50,286 nt of DNA from a virus (Duplodnaviria; Caudoviricetes), in IMG/VR virus record IMGVR_UViG_3300020043_006108, positions 1 to 50,286 of that record. One strand, 5' to 3'. The position numbers were made by a program, and so were the translations under genes. The notes below the pieces were generated by a model, which made no database searches, had not been told where the DNA came from, and was given only the letters and a program-made list of their open reading frames with translations. Below are positions 740 to 50,286 of the stretch, one piece after another. Position 1 is the stretch's first letter. Each line of letters starts with the position of its first letter.

Positions 740-966
740 AAAAGGTAAAGATTACAGGATTTAGCACCAACCCGCGATGCGGGATAGCCGGGCGAACAGA
801 GTTGGTTAAAAAGGCTTTTTTAGAGGACGGCCTGGCATTTCCAATATTAGGCAGGGTAGATAAATCACAGGACGATCTTTTTATAGATGGCGATCAATGT
901 GGTCATCCCTGGGCGGCTTCTGCTTTTGTTTACCATGAAATTCCAGAAAAAAGTTTGCCGGAATAA
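736..966 (+). CDS. Hypothetical protein
   Basis: ATGA overlap with the preceding ORF. Confidence 0.6.
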   Translation: MKKVKITGFSTNPRCGIAGRTELVKKAFLEDGLAFPILGRVDKSQDDLFIDGDQCGHPWAASAFVYHEIPEKSLPE

Positions 967-977
967 AATAGTTTCAT

Positions 978-985
978 TATCTTTG
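978..985 (+). promoter_or_regulatory. Bacteroidota -7 promoter box (TATCTTTG)
   Basis: Matches TAnnTTTG; the same box precedes the homologous leader at 49151. Confidence 0.65.
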
Positions 986-988
986 TTC

Positions 989-1141
989 TGCCCAAAGGGG
1001 CCGCCGTCTGGTAAACGGTTGTAATTAGATTCACAATATTTTCAACGAATGCCCTTGATCGGGGCGGGTTTGTAGGGTGTGAATCCCCTACTTTATTGGC
1101 ATACCAACGCCGCCCCTCCGATCAAGGGCATTTCCATTTTT
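989..1141 (+). ncRNA. Structured leader RNA (C4/CI-like antisense or attenuator), copy A
   Basis: 5' hairpin CCGT-CTGGTAA-ACGG; long stem AATGCCCTTGATCGG/CCGATCAAGGGCATT enclosing GTAGGG/CCCTAC and GGC-ATACCAAC-GCC hairpins, then a U-rich tail. Conserved at 49162-49315 with a different-sequence inner hairpin. Confidence 0.7.
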
Positions 1142-1148
1142 AGTCGGT

Positions 1149-1625
1149 ATGAAAAACATAAGTATCGCAAAAGGTCAGATAGTTGTTGATAAAACAACAG
1201 GGTGCAGGGGCACTGTCTTGGAAGTCGTCGGAGACATGGTTCGCGTTCACAGCAAAGAAAACAGTATGCGCACAAGCGGTGACGGGTACCCGTGTCCAAT
1301 CGAGTACACAACATCCGCCCTGGATTTCACAGTAGAGTTTTCTGAACTAACAGACTACACTCCATATCCGTGGCACAGGAAAAACATTGTCTGCAAAACA
1401 GAATTTGGAAACGAGGCAGAACACTGGGTGCTTGGTGCTGACGGAACGGAATTGGCGTGTTGCGACAACTTCCACGATGCCGACCTTATGGCGTCGTCTA
1501 TTGATCTGCTTATTGCGGCAAAGGCGGCGCTTGCAGCACTGTCACAAAACGCCATATTCCCCGCCGACATAACCGCCGCGAAAAAGTGGCTATCGGACGC
1601 AATCGCCAAAGCCGAAACCGTTTAA
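1149..1625 (+). CDS. Hypothetical protein downstream of leader RNA A
   Basis: 158 aa ORF; C-terminal ~40 aa similar to the C-terminus of 48858-49118. Confidence 0.75.
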   Translation: MKNISIAKGQIVVDKTTGCRGTVLEVVGDMVRVHSKENSMRTSGDGYPCPIEYTTSALDFTVEFSELTDYTPYPWHRKNIVCKTEFGNEAEHWVLGADGTELACCDNFHDADLMASSIDLLIAAKAALAALSQNAIFPADITAAKKWLSDAIAKAETV

Positions 1626-1644
1626 CTCACACTCACTTTGCACT

Positions 1645-2469
1645 ATGTCAGGACAAATACACCGCCGCAAAAAGAACAAAGATTTTGTCATTTTAGACAC
1701 TCATTGCCTCCGAAATCCGGCGCTAAAATGGGATGCAAAAGGGCTTCATTCGTACCTTATGCAGTTGCCGGATGACTGGAAAATCAACATTTCAGACCTT
1801 ACAAACAGAAGTAAAGACGGAACCGAAGGGACTTCCACGCCGATGAACGCGCTAATAAAAGCGGGTTACGTGAAAAGAATTAAGGTTTTAGGTGAAAGGG
1901 GGCGGTTTGCTGGATATGATTACGAGGTTTTTGAGCATCCGCAAGCACAGGAAGTACAGCCGGAACCGCAACCCGAAATAGACACCACCGTAACCGGCTT
2001 TTCCGTACACGGTAAAACCGTAAACGGGGAATCCGTAAACGGGAAACCCGGTACTAATAAGGATGAAGAGAGTAAGGATGAAGGGTACATATATAAAGCG
2101 CACACGCAAGAAAACGAATTACCGCCTCCCAAAAGCCCAAAAATAGAAACAGCCGACGAAGCCCGTACCGCAATCAACGCCTGGCTAAACGACGGCAACG
2201 AGGAAACGGTAAAACTTTGGTATTCAGAGTTGAAAATAAACTACAACCGGGGCGAATTTAAAACCGTGCTGATAAAGTTTTGCTCCAACTACATGACTTC
2301 CTCCGATGAAGGATTTGTTCAAAGATTCCAAAAAGACCCGGTGAAGTTTTTCCGCAATCGGTTTCAAATATTTTTACCAACGTGCCGGGGTTTTGACGCG
2401 AAGCAATCAACTAAACCGGCACCATCACAAAACGGGGCGGTTTACACGCCACCGGCAAAACGATTTTGA
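1645..2469 (+). CDS. Phage replication initiator (N-terminal HTH-like domain, internal iterons), variant A
   Basis: AKGLHSYLMQLPDDWKIN..DL..RSKDG...L..AGY is typical of phage Rep N-termini; iterons lie mid-gene; DnaB is just downstream. Confidence 0.8.
   Translation: MSGQIHRRKKNKDFVILDTHCLRNPALKWDAKGLHSYLMQLPDDWKINISDLTNRSKDGTEGTSTPMNALIKAGYVKRIKVLGERGRFAGYDYEVFEHPQAQEVQPEPQPEIDTTVTGFSVHGKTVNGESVNGKPGTNKDEESKDEGYIYKAHTQENELPPPKSPKIETADEARTAINAWLNDGNEETVKLWYSELKINYNRGEFKTVLIKFCSNYMTSSDEGFVQRFQKDPVKFFRNRFQIFLPTCRGFDAKQSTKPAPSQNGAVYTPPAKRF
1988..2042. repeat. Four iterons, consensus CCGTA(A/C)(A/C)CGG, at a 15-bp period (putative origin A)
   Basis: CCGTAACCGG 1988, CCGTACACGG 2003, CCGTAAACGG 2018, CCGTAAACGG 2033; a purine/A-rich tract follows. 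Confidence 0.75.
2170..2290. repeat. 121-nt exact repeat of the window end (50166-50286)
   Basis: Base-by-base identity; near-identity extends back to ~2130/50126. Confidence 0.9.
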
Positions 2470-2472
2470 AAG

Positions 2473-2646
2473 ATGGAAAAATTGTATCTCGTATTCGTGG
2501 GCGGAAAACTTGCGCCATGGGAACTTCGGAATAAATGGGGGAGCCTTGTTAGGCGCAGGAAAAGAGCGTGGAGCCTAACAAAATGGGCAGATACAAACGG
2601 ATATACCGTAGAGATAAACTACAACCCGAAATACGAAACGCAATGA
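2473..2646 (+). CDS. Small hypothetical protein, 57 aa (MEKLYLVFVGGK...YETQ; not in ORF track)
   Basis: Fills the rep-dnaB gap; its TGA overlaps the ATG at 2643. Confidence 0.55.
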   Translation: MEKLYLVFVGGKLAPWELRNKWGSLVRRRKRAWSLTKWADTNGYTVEINYNPKYETQ

Positions 2647-4073
2647 CCCACCCATACGCAAAAGTCCAACCCCAGGCAATCCCACTCGAACAAGCCGTAC
2701 TTGGTGCGCTTATGCTCGACCGTGAAGCCGTGTTACAGGTTGTTGATCTGCTAAGCCCGGAGAGTTTCTATTTGGATTCTCACCAACTGATTTACAAAGC
2801 AATCGTTTCGCTTTTCAACAGATCGGAGCCGGTTGATTTACTGACCGTCACGGAAGAGTTGAAAAAGTCGGGCGATCTTGAAAAGGTCGGGAATGCTTAC
2901 TACCTGATTGAGTTGTCAAATCAAGTAGCCAGTTCGGCGAATATTGAATATCACTCCCGGATCATTCAGGAAAAGTGGATGCAAAGGAGGCTGATAGAAA
3001 CCGGGAGTATCATTTTGCGGGATGGTTTTTCAGACGAAATAGACGTGTTTGAGCAGATTGAAGCCGCCGAAAAATCCATCTACGAAATCACAGCCGGAAC
3101 GAACAAGAAGGACGCAAAATCGGCAAAAGACATAAGCCGGAAGGTTTTACGGAACATCGAAGCAGCGGTAAAGAAAAGAGAATCGGGAGGCGTTACGGGT
3201 GTGCCTACGGGGTTGAGCGATATAGACCAAAAAACGGGCGGGTTGCAAAATTCGGATTTGATAATTATTGCAGCCAGGCCCGGCATGGGAAAAACTGGAC
3301 TTGCAATGTCAATAGCACTAAGGGCGGCCCAACAGGATAGCGCCGTCGGTATTTTCTCCCTGGAAATGTCTGAAACGCAGTTAATGGCCCGATTGATCGG
3401 CGGCGAAAGCGGGGTTTCTTCCAACCGCATGATGAGCGGCGATGTAAAGGAATACGAATGGGGGCAATTACAAACCACAATAGAGGGGTTTGATAGCCTG
3501 AAACTTTACATTGACGATACGGCAGCCATATCCGTTACCGCGTTAAGAGCAAAGGCCCGAAGGATGAAAATGAAGTACAATATTTCGCTGGTAATTGTAG
3601 ACTATTTGCAGTTAATGAAGTCCAGCGAAAAAGGAGGAAACAGAGAGCAGGAAATTTCCCGGATCAGTCAGGGGCTAAAGGCGCTTGCTAAAGAATTGGA
3701 CATTCCTGTTATTGCGCTGTCTCAACTTTCCAGAGCGGTCGAAACAAGGGGCGGAAGCAAGCGACCCCAACTGTCAGACCTTCGTGAGAGCGGTAGTATT
3801 GAGCAGGACGCGGATATAGTAGCGTTTATTTACCGCCCCGAATATTATCAGATTTTAGAAGATGAAAATGGAAGAAGCCTAAAAGGTATCGCAGAGATCA
3901 TTTTTGCAAAACACAGGAACGGCGGGATTGGAACGGTTGAGGTTGAATTTGAAGAACAGTTTGCAAGGTTCTCTGACATTAAAACCGGGCAATTCCCAAC
4001 CACAGCGCCCTATTCTCCATCGGCGGGGATAACGGCAAACCGCAGAGAAAACGATGAGGATATACCGTTTTGA
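2643..4073 (+). CDS. dnaB: Replicative DNA helicase DnaB
   Basis: PQAIPLEQAVLGALM N-domain, Walker A AARPGMGKT, FSLEMS, IVDYLQLM, ALSQLSR, SDLRESGSIEQDAD, KHRNG. Start moved to ATG 2643. Confidence 0.97.
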   Translation: MTHPYAKVQPQAIPLEQAVLGALMLDREAVLQVVDLLSPESFYLDSHQLIYKAIVSLFNRSEPVDLLTVTEELKKSGDLEKVGNAYYLIELSNQVASSANIEYHSRIIQEKWMQRRLIETGSIILRDGFSDEIDVFEQIEAAEKSIYEITAGTNKKDAKSAKDISRKVLRNIEAAVKKRESGGVTGVPTGLSDIDQKTGGLQNSDLIIIAARPGMGKTGLAMSIALRAAQQDSAVGIFSLEMSETQLMARLIGGESGVSSNRMMSGDVKEYEWGQLQTTIEGFDSLKLYIDDTAAISVTALRAKARRMKMKYNISLVIVDYLQLMKSSEKGGNREQEISRISQGLKALAKELDIPVIALSQLSRAVETRGGSKRPQLSDLRESGSIEQDADIVAFIYRPEYYQILEDENGRSLKGIAEIIFAKHRNGGIGTVEVEFEEQFARFSDIKTGQFPTTAPYSPSAGITANRRENDEDIPF

Positions 4074-4090
4074 AAATACTTTCACAAATA

Positions 4091-4122
4091 CTTGCACGGT
4101 AATATTTTGCCGCTTACCTTTG
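4091..4122 (+). promoter_or_regulatory. Promoter CTTGCACGGTA...TACCTTTG
   Basis: Same 11-mer and the same 20-nt TTG-to-TAnnTTTG spacing as 43363 and 43862. Confidence 0.7.
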
Positions 4123-4138
4123 ACGAAAATCCGAAACA

Positions 4139-4342
4139 ATGACATGCAAGCAATTCACCGAATTAAAACCCGGAACTCATTTTTGGGGCAAATTTGAAGG
4201 CGGAATGGCCGTATTTTTTAAAGATTGCTACAACTGCATTTATATATGTGGTGGATGGGAAGGATCATTTCATTGCGACAAAATAGAATTTGTTTCCATC
4301 ATCGAAAACCCAAACCCTGAAACCGAAACGTATTACAAATAA
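4139..4342 (+). CDS. Hypothetical protein
   Basis: Follows the promoter at 4091-4122. Confidence 0.65.
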   Translation: MTCKQFTELKPGTHFWGKFEGGMAVFFKDCYNCIYICGGWEGSFHCDKIEFVSIIENPNPETETYYK

Positions 4343-17625: not shown

Positions 17626-17858
17626 GTTGCGAACAAGTTTTGCGGATGTCGAAGCCTCAATTGATTTTGCGGTTTCCGAAGTGCTTTTCTCCGACACCGG
17701 CGGATTTCAAGGCCTATTTTGATTCGCTTCCAGCCTGCTTGAATGATACCGATGCGCGGGATAACTTCAATCTTGACACACACGATTTATATTGGTTTGC
17801 CGAATTAACGGACACCGGAATTTATGACGTACTAAAAAGGGTTTCGCCACTCACATGA
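17622..17858 (+). CDS. Hypothetical protein
   Basis: ATGA overlaps on both sides. Confidence 0.65.
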
Positions 17859-20800
17859 AAAAATTACTATTCCTTTTGCTTCTCATCCCGTTTTTAGGGA
17901 CCTCGCAAGGAACATTTACGGCTCCGGTTGGCTATAATACCGGGGCGCCTACTGCCGCGCCTTCGGGTGTTGGCACGCGCTGGCGTTTTGACCTGCTGAC
18001 AGGCAAAAAATACACCTGGAATCCAGACGCGGTGGCATGGGATGAAGACCCGCGCGGCATAGATCAGATTTCGGGATGCTCGGCACCGATGTACACGCCT
18101 GGTTATAATCAGTCCACGTTCGCGGTAAATTCATGCTCCACACCTGAACTATACCAATATTATTCGAGCGCATGGCACTGTCTGAATTGTGGCGGCGGTA
18201 GTACCGGGCCGCAAGGTCCTCCAGGCCCAAGTGGTCCCACAGGCGCAACAGGCCCGCAAGGCCCGATTGGGTTAACGGGCCCGGCTGGCGATACAGGCGC
18301 GACAGGTCCGCAAGGTCCGATTGGGTTAACCGGTCCTACAGGTGCGACAGGTCCACAAGGCCCGATTGGGTTAACCGGTCCTACAGGTGCGACAGGTCCG
18401 CAAGGCCCGATTGGTTTGACCGGTCCTACAGGTGCAGCCGGCGCGACAGGTCCGCAAGGCCCGATTGGTTTAACAGGCGATACAGGCGCGACAGGTCCGC
18501 AAGGCCCGATTGGTTTAACCGGTCCTACAGGTGCTACAGGTCCGCAAGGTCCGATTGGGTTAACCGGCCCCGCAGGTGCAACGGGTGCTACAGGCCCGCA
18601 AGGCTTGACCGGCGATACGGGCGCTACGGGCCCGCAAGGCCCCATTGGATTGACCGGCCCCGCAGGCCCGCAAGGTCCGGCAGGCACTTCAGGCTCCTAT
18701 ACCGCCGGTTCGGGCATTACGATCACCGGAGCCGCGCCTGACATTACAATAAGCGCGGATGACAATAGCCCGACCAACGAACTACAAACCCTTTCCATTG
18801 ACGGCAACGATTTGACGCTGAGTGATGGGGGTGGTACGGTAACACTTCCTTCCAGTGTCGGCGGCGGGTCGATTCAAATGGATAACTACAGGCTGCCCGC
18901 CACGAATGCGAAAATCCCTGCAACGGGGCTTAACGCTAACGAATCAGTTGCTAATTATAATTTCGCTGCAATCAACCCAAATCAATATAAGTTTTCATCT
19001 GCCCCATACGGCACGGGAAACACAGATTACGGCGGCTGGCTGGCAAATGGTACATCGGGCGATAGTGTTGCGGTATCCGCGCCGTTTTGGGTTGTGATTG
19101 GAGACAGTCAAGCAGAAGGCTATCCGGGGCGGCATGGGCGGCTGCATAGCGACGGGTCCGGTGTTGTTAATCTGAATCTTGCTGACCTGCCTGGGCAGTT
19201 GTCGTACACCTTAGCACGCCTTACTAATATGAGGTGGTACAATCATGGCATCGGGGGCGAAACATCTACACAAGTATGGGCAAGATGGAGGCGCGATGCC
19301 CTAGCCGAAACCTTCAATCCTGGAGACGGGAAAGGGTCGAAGACGCTGCAACGTCGCCCTTTCGGTGTGGTAGTTGTGGTAGGCGTTAACGATTTTTTTG
19401 GAGGCGCTACGCATGTTGCTGTCGTTGAGTCTAATTTACTCCGCATGGCTCGTTCTGCACGTGATAATGGTATGCAGTGCGTGTTTCTTAATTGCCCAGG
19501 ACAAGAAGTCGCAACTGCAACTCAAGTAAGGCAGATTGATTCGCTCAATGTTTTTTTTGCAGGCGGCGAATTGCAGGCGCTTGGCGCAGCGGTAGTAGAT
19601 TATAATGCCTGGTGGCGCGATGCAAGTTACAATGACAACATTCACGGCAACGCATTGATAACGGATGATACTCACCCCTCGCAAGATGGATATGACTCGC
19701 TCGCTGTCTATGTTTTCAAGTCTGCGAAACTGCCTGTACTTGATTCAGTTACGGTTTTTTCTGAAATATCTCCCGCTGGTTTTTCCGGATTTTCCCGACC
19801 TACAGGAATTACAATTCAGGGGAGGTCGTATACATTGACCGGCGCAGCCTCAACCGTTCCGATCATATCGCATCGTTTCCTTAGTGATTCGATTTGGTTA
19901 AAAATCAACTCATCCGCAAATGTTTCCGGCACTTCTTGTTCTGGCTTTTCACACATATTGTGGCACGTCAAAAATGATACGACTGGACTTGCTACACGCC
20001 GACCTGAAAGATACCAAGGCTTCCAAGGCGGCGGTGCTGAAATTACAGGCGGCGGGGGTGCCGGGCAGTTTGCTTATTTCACAGGTTCAGGTTACTTCGA
20101 TAACCAAACCGTATCAAGTTCTGGACTATTTCGGTTTAAGGGCAATAATAACATTTTTCTTTTCACAGGCATCGGGGCAGACCCATTGACGACGGGGCAG
20201 AACAATAATAATTTCGGTAATGGGGCGGGCCTTGTTATGACCGCAGCGTCTAACAACAACAATTTCGGTAATGGCGCGGGGGCTGCAATGACAACAGGAA
20301 CCAACTGTAACAATTTTGGAGAACTTGCGGGTAATAAAATAACTACGGCAAGCGGTAATAATAATTTTGGGCCAAGCGCTGGCGCTTCACTTATTGGAGG
20401 TTCAAGCAATAACAACTTTGGAGTAAGAGCTGGATGGGCCGGTGTTTCTTGCGTTGGCGTTAATAATTTCGGCTATGAAGCCGGGTTAAACAGTACGGCC
20501 AACTTCGTTACTAACATAGGGTATCAAGCCGGACTAGGTAATACTAGCGGCGTAGACGTAATAAACATAGGCACACAAGCGGGGAATACAACAACAACCG
20601 GCTCCAATCTGATAATGATAGGCCGCACCGCGCAAGCGAGTAGCGCGTCTGCTTCTAACGAGTTAAATTTCGGCAATATTCTTTTTGGAACAGGCGTAAC
20701 ACCTACTCGCGCTACCGGCTTGTCGTCTGGGAAAATTGGCATAGGTACGCCCGCTCCGGCAGCATCTTCGATCCTGGACTTAACATCTACGACAGCCGGG

Positions 20801-20953
20801 CTGCTGCCGCCCCGAATGACCACCGCCCAAAGAAACGCAATAGCAAGCCCCGCAACCGGGCTCACGCTTTACTGTACAGACTGTACGGCAACAGATACAA
20901 GCACAGGGGTTATGCAAACGTATAACGGCGCAAACTGGAAAAACAACTGGTAA
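17855..20953 (+). CDS. Fibre/adhesin-like protein: signal peptide, collagen repeat, SGNH hydrolase, Asn/Gly repeats
   Basis: [17 protein letters not shown]|Q; Gly-X-Y tract; GDSQ..GIGG..GVND..DDTHP; NNNFG repeats; C-terminal [19 protein letters not shown] domain. Confidence 0.85.
18202..18690 (+). repeat. Collagen-like coding repeat (unit ~[15 protein letters not shown], 45 nt)
   Basis: About 10 imperfect tandem copies. Confidence 0.9.
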
Positions 20954-37062: not shown

Positions 37063-37099
37063 AAAGCCCCTTTCTGACTTGTTCGGGGAGGGGCTTTTT
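37063..37099 (+). terminator. Intrinsic terminator
   Basis: AAAGCCCC..GGGGCTTTTT. Confidence 0.75.
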
Positions 37100-37110
37100 A
37101 AATTTCAAGA

Positions 37111-43298: not shown

Positions 43299-43362
43299 AT
43301 GTGTTTCACTTCACACTTACAAGCGCTTGGAAAAATAAAAATGAAAAATATTTCATCAATTG

Positions 43363-43394
43363 CTTGCACGGTATTAATACGGGTTGTATCTTTG
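43363..43394 (+). promoter_or_regulatory. Promoter CTTGCACGGTA...TATCTTTG
   Basis: Shared motif and spacing with 4091 and 43862. Confidence 0.7.
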
Positions 43395-43447
43395 AACCAA
43401 CAAAGCGCAACAATAACGCGGCGCTGAAAATTAAAAAAGTTAGCAAC

Positions 43448-43790: not shown

Positions 43791-43861
43791 TTGCCCAAAA
43801 CATTGATTTTCTACCCTTTGTGTTTCCGTGTGAAAATATTTTCAAAATATATTGGTAATTG

Positions 43862-43893
43862 CTTGCACGGTATTAAAACACCCCGTACATTTG
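43862..43893 (+). promoter_or_regulatory. Promoter CTTGCACGGTA...TACATTTG (main early rightward)
   Basis: Shared motif and spacing with 4091 and 43363. Confidence 0.7.
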
Positions 43894-43921
43894 ACCTATC
43901 ATTCACACAAAAAAGAAGATC

Positions 43922-46428: not shown

Positions 46429-47201
46429 ACGCAATAACACACCTTTCGTTCTCCCGTTTGGGCGAATTGGAACACAGCCCTTCGGCACTGAAAAAGTACA
46501 TGGAGGGTTCACGATCCGCAACCGCAGCAATGAACGAAGGCAGCCTTTTAGATTGCCTTTTATTCGAGCCGGAAAAACTGGAAAGCCGCTTTTTGATTAT
46601 CGACAAAGTGAGCAAAGCAACAAAAGAAGGCAAGGCGCTTTTTGCCGACGCACTCGAAAATGCCAACGGTCGCACGATAATGAACCGGGAGCAATACGAC
46701 GAACAAAAGTTTATCTGCACTTGCATCGAAGCCAACGCAACCGTTTTGCACCACGGACTTTTGAGGCGCGACGACACCGACGGTTTTAAATTTCAGGTGC
46801 CAGTAGACTTTTTTTACCACGGATTCAAGCACCGGGGCATCAAAGACGCAGATGGATACGACCGCAACGGAAACCGGGTAATTTGGGACTTAAAAAGAAT
46901 GGCGTCCCGATCCGGCGAAAGTCTTGTTCGGTCGCAGATTCGCATTATGGGCTACGATTTGCAGGCGGCTATTTACTGTTGGCCTTTGGATGAAAAAAAC
47001 GAGCCGGTTAAATATTACATTCTTGCAGTAGATAACGAGGGCTATGTAACACCATTTGAAGTCACACGCGATGCAAGAGAAAAGGCCCGGATACGATGGA
47101 ACAAATTAATTAAAGCCGCTCACCAGATCAATATGGAGCCACACTTATTGGATTCAGGTTGTGAGTTTTGGGCGGGTAGCGAAGGCTTTTTTAATTTTTA
47201 G
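46425..47201 (+). CDS. PD-(D/E)XK exonuclease (RecE/ExoVIII-like)
   Basis: LSFS.L, GS..DCLL.EPE, G..D...IWDLK, GYDLQAAIY; coupled to the RecT-like gene. Confidence 0.8.
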   Translation: MNAITHLSFSRLGELEHSPSALKKYMEGSRSATAAMNEGSLLDCLLFEPEKLESRFLIIDKVSKATKEGKALFADALENANGRTIMNREQYDEQKFICTCIEANATVLHHGLLRRDDTDGFKFQVPVDFFYHGFKHRGIKDADGYDRNGNRVIWDLKRMASRSGESLVRSQIRIMGYDLQAAIYCWPLDEKNEPVKYYILAVDNEGYVTPFEVTRDAREKARIRWNKLIKAAHQINMEPHLLDSGCEFWAGSEGFFNF

Positions 47202-47213
47202 CCCAATAAAGCA

Positions 47214-47498
47214 ATGAAAAAGCAATACCATAAAAACAAAGCCGCGAAAGTAGGCGACAGATGTATTTGCCCATCCTGCAATACTTTGTTCGTAAAGGTT
47301 TCTTATCAGCAGGCATTTTGTAAAATACAAGGCGGCACGGTCTGCAAGGACAAGTACTGGAATACCGTTACACCCGAAAAAAGAAACAACACAACACGAA
47401 TAAGCCCCGCAAACGCAGCATGGAAAAAGCAAATGGAGGATGAAGAAATATTCCATGATGACGATATGGGGTGGGATGCACACAAAAACAGTTTCTAA
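47214..47498 (+). CDS. Small zinc-finger-like protein
   Basis: CPSC...F.K..YQQAFC......CKD.YWN. Confidence 0.75.
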   Translation: MKKQYHKNKAAKVGDRCICPSCNTLFVKVSYQQAFCKIQGGTVCKDKYWNTVTPEKRNNTTRISPANAAWKKQMEDEEIFHDDDMGWDAHKNSF

Positions 47499-47500
47499 TT

Positions 47501-47575
47501 ATGAGCGCAGCGAAATTCGACTTGGAATCTGGGTGTGAGTTTTGGGCGGGTAGCGAAGGGTTTTTTAACTTTTAA
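47501..47575 (+). pseudogene. 24-codon chimera: NinB-like 5' end fused in frame to a second exonuclease 3' end
   Basis: MSAAKFDLESGCEFWAGSEGFFNF* versus MSAKFQIE (47946) and LDSGCEFWAGSEGFFNF* (47148-47201). Confidence 0.7.
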
Positions 47576-47586
47576 ACTGATTAGGA

Positions 47587-47949
47587 ATGACACTGCAAGA
47601 TTTGGCAATTAGCCACCCGTACTATTCGAGTGATAGTAACTACTATTCAAAAGATGCCGCACAAACGCATGAAACGTGGCAGGGGTTTTACGAAGGTGAA
47701 AAGAACTTGGATATCGACCTGAATCTTTGTTTTCGTTTCGATGTGAAGCATGATGAAGAGACAGGTCTTTATTGTGCGTACGTTTTCATTATTCAACAGC
47801 GAAAAGGAATTTACCGACCCGTCACAATTTCTTCAGTCACGGAAGAAGACGTTCCGACAATGATCGAATACCTGCAAAGGCATTACGATAAAATCAAGGA
47901 ACTTTGGCAGCCATTTTCATCGATAAATTCAAGTATGATTGGTTTATGA
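47587..47949 (+). CDS. Hypothetical phage protein
   Basis: HPYY....NYY, D.DLN..FR.D, QRKG and W.PF motifs. Confidence 0.75.
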   Translation: MTLQDLAISHPYYSSDSNYYSKDAAQTHETWQGFYEGEKNLDIDLNLCFRFDVKHDEETGLYCAYVFIIQQRKGIYRPVTISSVTEEDVPTMIEYLQRHYDKIKELWQPFSSINSSMIGL

Positions 47950-48446
47950 GCGCAAAATTCCAAATAGAAAAAATCTCCGGTCAATTCACCCAGCAAAGCC
48001 GCGCCATACTAAAAGAACAATTCTCCGCCCCGCCAGACGGAAAGCACGACGTATTGACCACACCGGCAAGGGGCTACAATCCGAAAAGGTATGCCTTCTA
48101 TTTTGACAGCGTCCTTTGGCAAATCCCGAATGAAGTCGGGCGCTTTTACCTGATTGTCAACCCGTCCACCGGAGAGCAGCGAACACCACGCGATACAACC
48201 GAACTGCACGAATGCATGAAGGCGATTTACAACCCCGTTACGCTGACGGTCGGAAACAAGACGCGGGTAATCGCCGGAACGACAACCGACCTAAACAACA
48301 AGGAGTTTATCGGAGAATTTTTAGAATCAATCATTTCCGATCATTCCGGGCCACCCTACAATATCGAGTTTATTGGCTACGAAGACTGGAAAGAACTTCA
48401 CCGGGCGAACGCCTGGATTAATTTTAAAAACACTTACAAAAAATGA
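47946..48446 (+). CDS. NinB/Orf-like recombination-associated protein
   Basis: FYF..VL..I, ELHE.MK, TT.L..KEF...LE.I; start at the ATGA overlap. Confidence 0.55.
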   Translation: MSAKFQIEKISGQFTQQSRAILKEQFSAPPDGKHDVLTTPARGYNPKRYAFYFDSVLWQIPNEVGRFYLIVNPSTGEQRTPRDTTELHECMKAIYNPVTLTVGNKTRVIAGTTTDLNNKEFIGEFLESIISDHSGPPYNIEFIGYEDWKELHRANAWINFKNTYKK

Positions 48447-48643
48447 AAGACGTTTTTGCATTGATCGAAGAAAACAAATTAACCGGCGAAGGCTTTGTAA
48501 GGGGCCAAACAACCGATGGGCAAAAAGGACTGGATTGGGCAAAAGAAAACGCCCAAAAGTCGGCAGCGTTTGTAAAGACCGGCACCGGCTTTGCAACAAA
48601 AGGAAGCGCATTCGATGTAATCAATAAAAGCGAATTGAAATGA
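48443..48643 (+). CDS. Hypothetical protein, allele of 95-295
   Basis: Near-colinear with 95-295. Confidence 0.8.
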   Translation: MKDVFALIEENKLTGEGFVRGQTTDGQKGLDWAKENAQKSAAFVKTGTGFATKGSAFDVINKSELK

Positions 48644-48861
48644 CAACCGAAAAAGCCAAACCCGGCCCAAAGCCCACAGGGAAAGCCAGAATTTCACGCG
48701 GCATCTCGTTTCGCGCGGATCATTTCGAGTGGCTGGATCAATACGAAGACCGGAGCGCAGTGGTGCAAAAGGCGCTAAGTATTCTCATTCCGCTCGAAGA
48801 AATGCAGGAATGGGAAGCAATCGAAGCAATTAAATCAAACTTTCAAAACCTGAAAAAATGA
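48640..48861 (+). CDS. Putative ribbon-helix-helix DNA-binding protein
   Basis: KPGPKPTGK then ISRGISF-RADHFEWL-RSAVVQKAL. Confidence 0.6.
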   Translation: MTTEKAKPGPKPTGKARISRGISFRADHFEWLDQYEDRSAVVQKALSILIPLEEMQEWEAIEAIKSNFQNLKK

Positions 48862-49118
48862 ACGGTAACGCAAAAGAGATACCGCTTTGGCGTGCAATGC
48901 CTGAACTGATCGAAGCGAAAATTTCCAAACTGGAACAGGGAAAGCACGACCTTTTGAAGCAGGTTGCAGCCAACCACAAGAGCGTAAACACGCCTGAACT
49001 TCTCCACGCCGCCAAATCCGCACTCGAAATCCTGTCAAAGACCGCAATTTTTCCGCAGGACATTGAAGCCGTGCGAAAGATGCTGGCGGAGGTTATAAAA
49101 AAATCTGAAACCGTTTAA
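48858..49118 (+). CDS. Hypothetical protein resembling the 518-739 N-terminus and the 1149-1625 C-terminus
   Basis: Alignment by eye. Confidence 0.7.
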   Translation: MNGNAKEIPLWRAMPELIEAKISKLEQGKHDLLKQVAANHKSVNTPELLHAAKSALEILSKTAIFPQDIEAVRKMLAEVIKKSETV

Positions 49119-49150
49119 AATAAACCCTTTCATTATTAAAAATAACGCAT

Positions 49151-49315
49151 TATCTTTGTCATGCCCAAAGGGGCCGCCGTCTGGTAAACGGTTGTAAAAG
49201 GAAGATTCAATTTTTAAGCAAATGCCCTTGATCGGGGCGGGTTTTCGAGATATTTCCTTTTCTCGATTTATTGGCATACCAACGCCGCCCCTCCGATCAA
49301 GGGCATTTTTATTTT
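49151..49315 (+). ncRNA. Promoter box TATCTTTG plus structured leader RNA, copy B
   Basis: Core identical to 989-1141; the inner hairpin is TCGAGA/TCTCGA instead. Confidence 0.7.
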
Positions 49316-49323
49316 CAGTCGGT

Positions 49324-49662
49324 ATGGCAAATAGTCAATATAAGGCAATGATTAAGGATATTAATCAAGAGCGTAAAGAGTTTTACCGCAATGGCAAATC
49401 CGCACTTTACACCGATTGCGGGATGACTTACACACGCTTTATCCCGGAGTTTCAAAAGTGGATAGCGTTCAGAAACCCTAAAAAACATTTCCATAAAGAA
49501 TTTCGGGATTACTGCGAATTTTACGGCGAACGAATAGACAAGCCCTCCGTGAGGGACTTTTGCGAGTTTCACTACTTTGATTTTTCAATGCCCGAAAACT
49601 CCTGCGAGTTTTGCCCGGATGGCGACGCGCTGACAAAATATTTTCAAGACGAAAGACTATAA
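49324..49662 (+). CDS. Hypothetical protein downstream of leader RNA B
   Basis: AGTCGGTATG start context identical to 1149. Confidence 0.65.
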   Translation: MANSQYKAMIKDINQERKEFYRNGKSALYTDCGMTYTRFIPEFQKWIAFRNPKKHFHKEFRDYCEFYGERIDKPSVRDFCEFHYFDFSMPENSCEFCPDGDALTKYFQDERL

Positions 49663-49667
49663 ATTTC

Positions 49668-50286
49668 ATGTCCGACCTTTCCTTTACCCACATCTATGAA
49701 GGCGCAAGAGCAGCGCTCAACCTTTCCCGCGACAAATACGCGCTTTGCAATTATATCCAAACTTGGAGTACATACCCTGGTCGATGTCCCGGATTTTGCG
49801 ATAGAACACAGGCGCAAATGGCCGAATTTATCGGCATCACAGACCGGGGCATCCGGAAGATGTTGCAAAGCCTGGAGGCGGAAGATTTGATAGAAAAACA
49901 CCCGACGAACGGCCTTTGCAGGATTACGAAAAAATGGTTTAATGCCGTTGCTTTCGAGAAAAAAAAGGAGGAACAAGGTTCCGCACAACCCGGAACAAAG
50001 TTCCTACCTATTAGGAACAAAGTTCCGCATCAACAGGAACAAAGTTCCGCACACAAAGAGAAGTTAAAAGAAGTTAAAGAAGAAAAGATATATATACAGC
50101 CGACGGAAGAAAAACAACAACCCCCTAAAAGCCCAAAAATCGAAACAGCCGACGAAGCCCGTACGGCAATCAACGCCTGGCTAAACGACGGCAACGAGGA
50201 AACGGTAAAACTTTGGTATTCAGAGTTGAAAATAAACTACAACCGGGGCGAATTTAAAACCGTGCTGATAAAGTTTTGCTCCAACT
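49668..50286 (+). CDS. Replication initiator variant B (runs off the window end; not in ORF track)
   Basis: MSDLSFTHIYEGAR...TQAQMAEFIGITDRGIRKMLQSLEAEDLIEK (winged HTH-like), then PPKSPKIETADEAR... identical to variant A. Confidence 0.85.
   Translation, partial: MSDLSFTHIYEGARAALNLSRDKYALCNYIQTWSTYPGRCPGFCDRTQAQMAEFIGITDRGIRKMLQSLEAEDLIEKHPTNGLCRITKKWFNAVAFEKKKEEQGSAQPGTKFLPIRNKVPHQQEQSSAHKEKLKEVKEEKIYIQPTEEKQQPPKSPKIETADEARTAINAWLNDGNEETVKLWYSELKINYNRGEFKTVLIKFCSN
49970..50048. repeat. Four iterons GGAACAA(A/G)GTTCC at a 22-bp period (putative origin B)
   Basis: Copies at 49970, 49992, 50014 and 50036; an A-rich tract follows. Confidence 0.8.

Follow-up and report, generated by a model that had tools for sequence, protein, structure and literature searches.

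A covarying leader RNA with two long-range loop pairings and a terminator-like end at the entrance to the replication genes of a Caudoviricetes virus

The DNA described here, in the following called the window, is the complete IMG/VR virus record IMGVR_UViG_3300020043_006108 (Duplodnaviria; Caudoviricetes), which comprises 50,286 bases and is classed as linear and 97% complete. It carries two versions of a leader element, copy A (975–1151) and copy B (49148–49326), which are 83% identical over an alignment of 184 nucleotides (nt). From its sequence, the element is best read as a non-coding cassette in which a sigma-ABfr-type promoter box precedes a transcript of about 155 nt with an intrinsic-terminator-like end. 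The predicted RNA combines covarying hairpins with two pairings between distant loops, and its position suggests a promoter-proximal attenuator, which gates the replication operon and in addition yields a compact small RNA. We regard this assignment as somewhat more probable than its negation.

The same plan is seen in twelve related loci (denoted by L numbers) and in the divergent members L059 and L074. A −7 box of the form TAnnTTTG is followed by two small hairpins, P1 and P2, an A/U-rich linker, a long stem P3 of 21–24 base pairs (bp) which encloses the hairpins P4 and P5, a U tract and, 10–25 nt downstream of the latter, the start codon. The T-rich tract behind P3 is present in all family members. 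In the window, the individual parts are located as follows.

954–985, plus strand: promoter-like region of copy A, with TTTG at 954–957, a 20-nt spacer and TATCTTTG at 978–985; fits the sigma-ABfr consensus.
990–993 / 998–1001, plus strand: P1 hairpin of copy A, loop AAAG; a consensus helix of RNAalifold.
1004–1007 / 1015–1018, plus strand: P2 hairpin of copy A, loop CUGGUAA at 1008–1014; the stem covaries.
1009–1013, plus strand: UGGUA in the P2 loop of copy A, the 5′ partner in the pairing with the P5 loop.
1019–1046, plus strand: A/U-rich linker of copy A, with the box GATTCACA at 1028–1035, which pairs with the P4 loop.
1047–1068 / 1113–1133, plus strand: long stem P3 of copy A, 21 pairs, C1065 bulged, G1063–U1117 a wobble; closes a three-way junction.
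1072–1077 / 1086–1091, plus strand: P4 hairpin of copy A (GTAGGG/CCCTAC), loop UGUGAAUC at 1078–1085, which pairs with the linker box.
1098–1100 / 1109–1111, plus strand: P5 mini-hairpin of copy A (GGC/GCC), loop AUACCAAC; present in minimum free energy folds.
1102–1106, plus strand: UACCA in the P5 loop of copy A; pairs with the P2 loop.
1131–1141, plus strand: U-rich tract of copy A, TTTCCATTTTT, directly after P3; intrinsic-terminator-like, as read from the sequence.
49151–49158, plus strand: −7-like box of copy B, TATCTTTG.
49163–49166 / 49171–49174, plus strand: P1 of copy B, identical to copy A.
49177–49180 / 49188–49191, plus strand: P2 of copy B, UGGUA at 49182–49186, identical to copy A.
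49196–49203, plus strand: linker box of copy B, AAAAGGAA, which pairs with the P4 loop UUCCUUUU at 49254–49261.
49220–49241 / 49288–49308, plus strand: P3 of copy B, enclosing P4 and P5.
49245–49250 / 49261–49266, plus strand: P4 of copy B (TCGAGA/TCTCGA).
49273–49275 / 49284–49286, plus strand: P5 of copy B, UACCA at 49277–49281.
49306–49326, plus strand: U tract of copy B, TTTTTATTTT, and the start codon ATG (49324–49326) of an open reading frame (ORF) of 112 amino acids (aa).

Folding energies of −65.2 and −65.5 kcal/mol were obtained for copies A and B, respectively, corresponding to z scores of −4.2 and −4.8, and none of 200 shuffles was as good. Among eight distinct sequences 90.9% of 352 cells pair, compared with 40.1–56.2% if the 3′ partners are slid by 1–3 columns, and changes on both sides are found at 10 pairs, a number reached by none of 500 shuffles. 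Covariation is seen in P1, P2 and P4. In homologs, GCCC/GGGC of P1 is replaced by GUUC/GAAC, GUUC/GAGC or GCCU/AGGC, a C-G pair of the P2 stem becomes U-A in three of the eight sequences, and the P4 stem is changed on both sides at five of its six pairs. This agrees with an earlier reading made from the sequence of the window alone (the sequence-only reading), which had noticed that the inner hairpin is swapped from GTAGGG/CCCTAC in copy A to TCGAGA/TCTCGA in copy B and still pairs.

P3 is invariant at 17 of 21 pairs among the eight close sequences, and its 5′ arm is identical at 20 of 20 nt between the window and the divergent L001. Of the two most divergent members, which were left out of the covariance model (R1) and whose 5′ domains are misaligned by MAFFT, L059 shows compensated changes in the basal six P3 pairs and L074 differs in sequence at all 20 P3 pairs. 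Forward matches of R1 reach 115–177 bits, reverse ones 26–50 bits. Seven of eight sequences have a G-U wobble in P3, and L024 and L035 also have G-U wobbles in their P4 stems; the total of G-U versus A-C in the MAFFT alignment, 16 versus 13, allows no decision, as P1, P5 and the ends of the loop-loop pairing are in part misaligned there. The 5′ strand of P3 (1049–1068) also folds on itself in the absence of the 3′ strand (UGCCCU-UGAUC-GGGGCG), whereby C1065, bulged in P3, becomes paired. A CC(C)-loop-GG(G) hairpin is likewise found in the P3 5′ strand of L059, L074 and L064, the last of these a locus of similar architecture. The self-fold may be a kinetic intermediate, and such a double duty of the strand might explain its invariance.

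The first long-range pairing connects the P4 loop with the linker box. In 12 of 12 sequences the two are perfect complements over 6–10 nt, and the family contains eight sequence versions (copy A/L021, copy B, L011, L008, L024/L035, L001, L059 and L074). L062 and L064, which have the architecture alone in common with the family, add two more versions of 8 and 10 nt. The versions of the family, each given as linker box and P4 loop, are:

Copy A and L021: GAUUCACA:UGUGAAUC
Copy B: AAAAGGAA:UUCCUUUU
L008: GCCUAAC:GUUAGGC
L024 and L035: AAGUCACA:UGUGACUU
L011: GGUAAA(CG)
L001: AAACAA:UUGUUU
L059: AGAAACAA:UUGUUUCU
L074: GGAUACAC:GUGUAUCC

With ten of the 12 sequences, the observed length is matched by 0–19 of 2000 shuffled leaders, and with L001 by 66 of 2000. 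The 8-nt pairing of copy A was reached by 6 of 2000 shuffles (2 of 5000 in a second shuffle test) and that of copy B, also 8 nt, by 19 of 2000; the value for L008 (7 nt, 8 of 5000) stems from a separate test, the loop having been mis-set in the script for 2000 shuffles.

The second pairing joins the loops of P2 and P5, the same two loops every time, and occurs in the five versions UGGUA:UACCA, CUGGU:ACCAG, GGUGU:ACACC, GUGGUU:AACCAC and UGAUAA:UUAUCA. With respect to copy A, the version of L074 contains a compensated change from G-C to A-U. Both pairings are colinear and antiparallel, with the P2 loop and the linker box on one side and the P4 and P5 loops on the other. Due to this geometry they could form within one molecule, giving rise to a double pseudoknot, or between two.

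A box TATCTTT[GA] or TATATTTG is situated 4–5 nt ahead of the first hairpin in 12 of 12 tabulated sequences. PMC7366714 gives the Bacteroides sigma-ABfr consensus as TTTG near −33 and TAnnTTTG at −7. Copy A fits this consensus, with TTTG 20 nt upstream of the box, and copy B has TTTC instead. Outside ORFs, the plus strand of the window holds five TAnnTTTG sites, three of which lie 16–31 nt before an ORF start and two of which are the elements. In copy A, the 171 nt between box and ORF are occupied by the RNA, and the box lies about 70 nt upstream of P3. Moreover, a G+C-rich stem followed by a U tract is found between promoter-like box and gene in every member, as looked for in an attenuator. 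Since the gap of 10–25 nt between U tract and start codon leaves no room for a promoter, transcription of the replication genes must pass P3. Gating of the operon leading into rep and dnaB, as proposed by the sequence-only reading, is thus a fair inference; an arrangement of two copies gating two operons is most likely an effect of assembly or haplotypes.

We infer that transcription starts at the promoter box, terminates at P3 and the U tract and proceeds beyond them by regulated read-through. A polymerase coming from the element's own promoter or from the upstream early genes would meet P3 and the U tract before rep and dnaB, the terminated product would be a compact small RNA, and both loop pairings would take part in the termination decision or in its specificity. 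For a known riboswitch class no Rfam match was obtained, and P1 and P2 lie outside the terminator strands; a riboswitch of a new class is conceivable. A leader peptide starting at the AUG which opens the 5′ strand of P3 was also considered and rejected: it has eight codons in copy A and is not conserved. In copy B and L001 this AUG shares its reading frame with the downstream gene; L059 lacks it.

Several points weigh against the attenuator reading. No convincing conserved antiterminator was found in the consensus fold of nine RNAs ending before the 3′ strand of P3; this consensus displays only the local hairpin within the invariant P3 5′ strand and no covarying competitor. The P2–P5 loop pairing is not significant in any single sequence (139–766 of 2000 shuffles). 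The tabulated set of 12 includes close relatives and amounts to about eight independent versions, the invariance of P3 is in part a consequence of the search, P3 patterns having led to most of the loci, and the replication context of L059–L138 is partly built in because these loci were fetched through DnaB. In L059 the element is located between dnaB and an SNF2-helicase/methylase gene and not before rep. No sensor, ligand or partner protein was identified, and the neighbouring small ORFs vary between loci. Finally, three RNA-library runs (labelled mosquito, plant and one coded organism) contain only scattered contigs with a depth of 2–4, one of which spans 1003–1257, across the terminator, and a run of raw reads contributed nothing; these runs speak neither for nor against transcription.

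The geometry of the loop pairings could also serve a self-specific control RNA acting in trans, according to the logic of CI of phage P4, C4 of phage P1 or plasmid countertranscripts. Terminated or processed leader RNA would accumulate with genome dosage, and its P4 and P5 loops would dock on the linker box and P2 loop of nascent leaders of the same type, thereby favouring termination, setting the level of Rep and conferring a separate specificity on each phage type. We consider this possible, with the balance of probability clearly on the other side. Colinear antiparallel pairings would allow one RNA to dock on another; covariation cannot separate intramolecular from intermolecular pairing, and with both partners on one molecule the intramolecular pairing should compete. 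In copies A and B and in L011, P1, P2, P3 and P5 are identical and the linker box and P4 are wholly different, a pattern expected of a specificity determinant, which together with the colinear geometry suggests a specificity function and an action in trans like that of CI. This argument is weakened because a single recombination patch comprising the linker, the P3 5′ strand and P4 could equally have produced the difference between A and B. The composite target of type A, UGGUA plus box, is found nowhere else in the window, and that of type B elsewhere only at two minus-strand sites unlike the element. Same-strand leader boxes have a precedent in phage P4, according to PMC4825925. C4, by contrast, has no match here in Rfam.

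A structure without regulation, be it a strong branched terminator at the end of the early operon or, for the replication mRNA, a stable 5′ structure or a processing site of RNase III type, in which the loop pairings merely stabilise a compact fold, is unlikely. It would account for the lack of a conserved alternative fold, and a duplex of the length of P3 (21–24 bp, about two helical turns) suits double-strand-specific processing. The element also exceeds the short-hairpin terminators of this phage (37064–37100), yet is not necessarily a switch for that reason. Against an unregulated structure speaks the order of box, RNA, terminator and gene, which sends transcripts from the box straight into P3, as well as the missing room for another promoter before the replication genes. 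Furthermore, two covarying tertiary pairings exceed what a plain terminator needs.

A function at the level of DNA, as an origin-associated cruciform or a GATC-containing palindrome bound by protein, appears very improbable. The P3 arms do form a long inverted repeat with GATC in each arm inside a replication module, and the identity of all 20 nt to L001 mentioned above is unusual. However, in DNA or on the other strand the G-U wobbles of P3, like those in P4 of L024 and L035, would turn into C-A mismatches, the layout of P1, P2, linker and U tract is asymmetric with respect to the strands, as are the R1 scores, and covarying loops with single-stranded partners fit an RNA. In addition, iteron-like repeats sit elsewhere, in the rep gene (49969–50048).

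The sequence-only reading had proposed a C4-like mechanism, in which a CAUACC loop blocks the start codon region GGUAUG and the 5′ segment GGGGCCGCC...UGGUA pairs alternatively with the 3′ arm of P3. In the window both pairings can be found: the duplex of 5′ segment and 3′ arm reaches −21.0 kcal/mol, CATACC and GGTATG are present in both copies, with loop/start pairings of −9.6 and −13.4 kcal/mol, and copy B indeed shows the 9/10 match to the start-codon region. Among nine sequences, the extended duplex is kept in only three (copies A and B and L011). It drops to −13.5 kcal/mol in L021 and to −9.2 to −13.2 kcal/mol in L008, L024, L035, L001 and L059, and the sequences with a weak duplex keep only the UGG(U)/(A)CCA core, that is, the core of the P2–P5 loop pairing. 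CATACC and GGTATG co-occur in two of the nine only; L011 and L021 possess CATACC alone, with a different start context, L024 and L035 GGTATG alone, with a different loop, and L008, L001 and L059 neither. Lack of conservation of GGTATG in homologs, the very outcome which had been named beforehand as speaking against the proposal, is thus what was observed, and the conserved CAGTCGGTATG seems to belong to the 3′ end of the cassette instead of being a pairing partner. The general parallel to C4 and CI stands insofar as a leader with complementary same-strand boxes precedes replication genes; the boxes that had been named are not the conserved ones. Upstream boxes are present and covary; the box at the downstream start codon is accompanied by its partner in two of nine sequences, both of them in the window. 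As four sequences retain one partner without a compensating change, the lower 14 bp of P3 beside the U tract would persist in the alternative fold and the Rfam search then suggested yielded no family, C4 included, at gathering score, this mechanism is to be regarded as highly improbable.

Searches for relatives returned a small family. A scan of viral DNA with sequence patterns led to one locus, L001, and a scan of metagenomes to 39 stretches, 11 of which contain the element and 28 of which are read as chance or unrelated. None of the 14 stretches from a pattern scan of cellular genome contigs contains it. A wider viral scan gave 22 stretches, only two of them real (L001 and L146, on the same contig as L059) and 20 unrelated. 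Among 82 viral loci anchored on DnaB, R1 detected two convincing members, L059 (49.8 bits) and L074 (28.1 bits); matches in L085 and in L064 at 12562 look like plain terminators and were discarded. Beyond known members, a descriptor scan with 25 candidates revealed L062 and L064 as loci of the same architecture; it also listed L066 (two sites, one of them judged borderline), L072, L086 and L099. The elements of L062 (1351–1490) and L064 (3619–3745) have no sequence similarity to the family and display the same plan of −7 box, 5′ segment, long stem, apical hairpin or hairpins, U tract and gene, including an apical loop with perfect complementarity to the 5′ segment, 8 nt long in L062 and 10 nt in L064. 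It is uncertain whether they are homologous to the family, and the plan may represent a wider class in phage replication modules.

R1 had no match in one Saprospiraceae genome and 151 genomes of its family, and blastn in distant mode with 970–1160 found none in 50,697 phage records. In the whole window, cmscan with Rfam 15 gave no match at gathering score; for 900–1250, at E values up to 10, four weak matches to unrelated families were listed, far below their gathering scores. ARAGORN detected no tRNA or tmRNA gene in the window. No comparable element turned up in the literature search; surveys of structured RNAs might list one in their supplements, which lay outside its reach.

The sequence-only reading had treated copies A and B as two leaders with identical cores. 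The copies and their repeated blocks are real: a 34-nt block (991–1024) and a 23-nt block (1049–1071) are each present exactly twice in the window, which was seen in none of 100 shuffles for either block. Their interpretation as two leaders of one genome is a different matter. The contig ends are colinear and diverged, 80–2290 corresponding to 48428–50286 with 77–93% identity (77–79% between 80–296 and 48428–48644, 92.6% between 2089–2290 and 50090–50286), and the contig terminates inside this homology. With filters off, R1 matches only copies A and B in the window, and every one of 12 related loci, like a 58-kb relative (87% complete), yields a single forward match. In the relatives L015, L025 and L002, genes like those at 47587–49118 are joined to an A-type element, which is followed by genes like those at 1149–4073, and mosaic joins inside the element occur in L025, L002 and L021. 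Because the ends are colinear but diverged and the relatives hold one copy each, copies A and B are most likely alleles of one locus rather than a pair of leaders in the same phage. Most simply, a genome of about 48 kb was assembled slightly beyond one unit length across two haplotypes. A true tandem arrangement of both copies in one genome is less likely but conceivable. As further observations, the contig ends look like those of a circular or concatemeric genome, and the replaced end segment of about 2.2 kb contains different small ORFs and a different replication-initiator gene.

The genes which follow the two copies are listed below.

1149–1625, plus strand: first gene after copy A, 158 aa, no family match.
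1645–2469, plus strand: replication initiator on the side of copy A.
2568–4073, plus strand: DnaB.
49665 to contig end, plus strand: replication initiator on the side of copy B, after the 112-aa ORF.

Upstream, the element is preceded by early genes (methylase, RecT, exonuclease and small ORFs). Downstream, the order is small ORF, replication initiator, DnaB and SNF2-helicase/methylase. By overall count, replication genes lie downstream in every locus long enough to judge, with a different position in L059. The initiator directly follows the element in L001, L035, L074 and L062, and one or two small ORFs lie in between for copy A, copy B and L021. The initiators fall in different PHROG families. 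In L064, the ORFs downstream of the element have no known function. Within the initiator gene of copy B, the palindromic 14-mer AGGAACAAAGTTCC occurs in four copies with 22-nt spacing (49969–50048). These repeats resemble the iterons of an internal origin of the lambda-O type; in the initiator gene of copy A (1645–2469), no repeat of similar clarity was noticed.

The nearest named cellular relatives of DnaB are found in Saprospiraceae, Lewinellaceae and other Bacteroidota, with 56–59% identity, and a Shine-Dalgarno-like 4-mer precedes only 4 of 67 ORFs. The host is probably a Saprospiraceae-like member of the Bacteroidota. At least 80% of the sampled words of the region 600–2600 are present in 14 DNA runs from wastewater, sludge and bioreactors, which belong to several studies.

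Several further repeats were noted in the window. A 58-nt promoter-like repeat with TTG...TAnnTTTG layout is present in three copies of 64–100% identity (4073–4130, 43345–43402 and 43844–43901), one of which lies 24 nt before the ORF at 4139, while two flank the divergent region between a minus-strand block and the plus-strand early genes. Between two plus-strand ORFs, at 37064–37100, a short hairpin flanked by A and T runs gives a weak R1 match on both strands; it has the look of a plain terminator of the phage, unlike the branched P3 of 21–24 bp. A 53-nt direct repeat of 91% identity (47148–47200 and 47522–47574), with a hairpin-like G+C-rich stretch and a T run at its end, flanks a 94-aa ORF (47214–47498). 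Finally, a 1032-aa ORF (17855–20953), which probably encodes a repetitive structural or fibre protein, contains repeats of 9/45-nt periodicity at 18188–18687, where a 167-nt unit is present in 12 overlapping copies.

Comparison with known systems places phage P4 CI closest in logic. According to PMC4825925, an RNA from the untranslated leader pairs with leader boxes and thereby causes premature termination before the replication genes, and the seqA/seqB/seqC system shares with the element an untranslated leader, same-strand boxes and replication genes. In contrast to CI, the boxes described here are the linker and P2 loop on the one hand and two apical loops within the terminator stem on the other, without a conserved downstream box. 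Moreover, the element has no Rfam match, ends like an intrinsic terminator and belongs to a Bacteroidota host and not to enterobacteria. In C4 of phages P1 and P7, two short sequences pair with two boxes of the same transcript, the boxes differ between related phages, and the target coincides in part with the ribosome-binding region of the following gene. The element likewise has loops which pair with boxes of the same transcript, but pairing with the start codon is not conserved and a C4 match is lacking. Replication control of plasmids such as pT181/pIP501 and IncI-alpha/IncB (repZ/repA) relies on a leader terminator or pseudoknot with group-specific kissing loops. There, the complementarity of the countertranscript is automatic because it is encoded on the opposite strand, whereas here both partners lie on one strand and complementarity is kept by covariation. 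In lambda, PR′, 6S RNA and tR′ provide a promoter, a short structured RNA and a terminator ahead of a phage operon, and put of HK022 consists of two promoter-proximal hairpins acting in cis. Unlike these, the element has a 5′ hairpin loop which pairs with a terminator loop, precedes replication and not late genes, and gives no match to their models. In phi29 pRNA, the two loops pair between separate molecules, which thereby assemble into a ring on the packaging motor. Like the element, pRNA has a long closing helix and a three-way junction, and its complementary loop sequences covary between phages. In the element, the loops have their partners in the 5′ part of the same RNA, a U tract forms the end, and the location is a replication module. 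In conclusion, the element is a member of none of these systems: P4 CI, C4, plasmid rep attenuators, lambda 6S/tR′, put or pRNA.

The preferred reading, an attenuator at the entrance to the replication operon, can be extended to a self-recognising kissing-loop device which controls dosage or incompatibility of phage replication, an extension we put forward as speculative and rather unlikely. The pairing of P4 loop and box and that of P5 and P2 would form before the 3′ strand of P3 is made and would keep the P3 5′ strand in a closed loop, so that the two-turn P3 winds up too late and transcription reads through to rep. Free leader RNA left from earlier rounds would occupy the box and the P2 loop only in nascent leaders of its own type, whereupon P3 zips up and transcription stops. 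A type-specific lock in each phage would explain why linker box and P4 differ between copies A and B.

To our knowledge, Bacteroidota and their phages have so far yielded very few regulatory RNAs. The element adds a covariation-supported RNA with two long-range pairings, to which nothing in Rfam 15 is alike. Its invariant core amid different flanking genes marks a junction of module exchange in mosaic phage genomes, and its hypervariable, self-complementary address at the entry to the replication genes is a candidate for RNA control of replication or of phage compatibility. If the kissing-loop reading is true, the element would be a plasmid-like copy-number or incompatibility device, operating with same-strand complementarity, in a phage of Bacteroidota.

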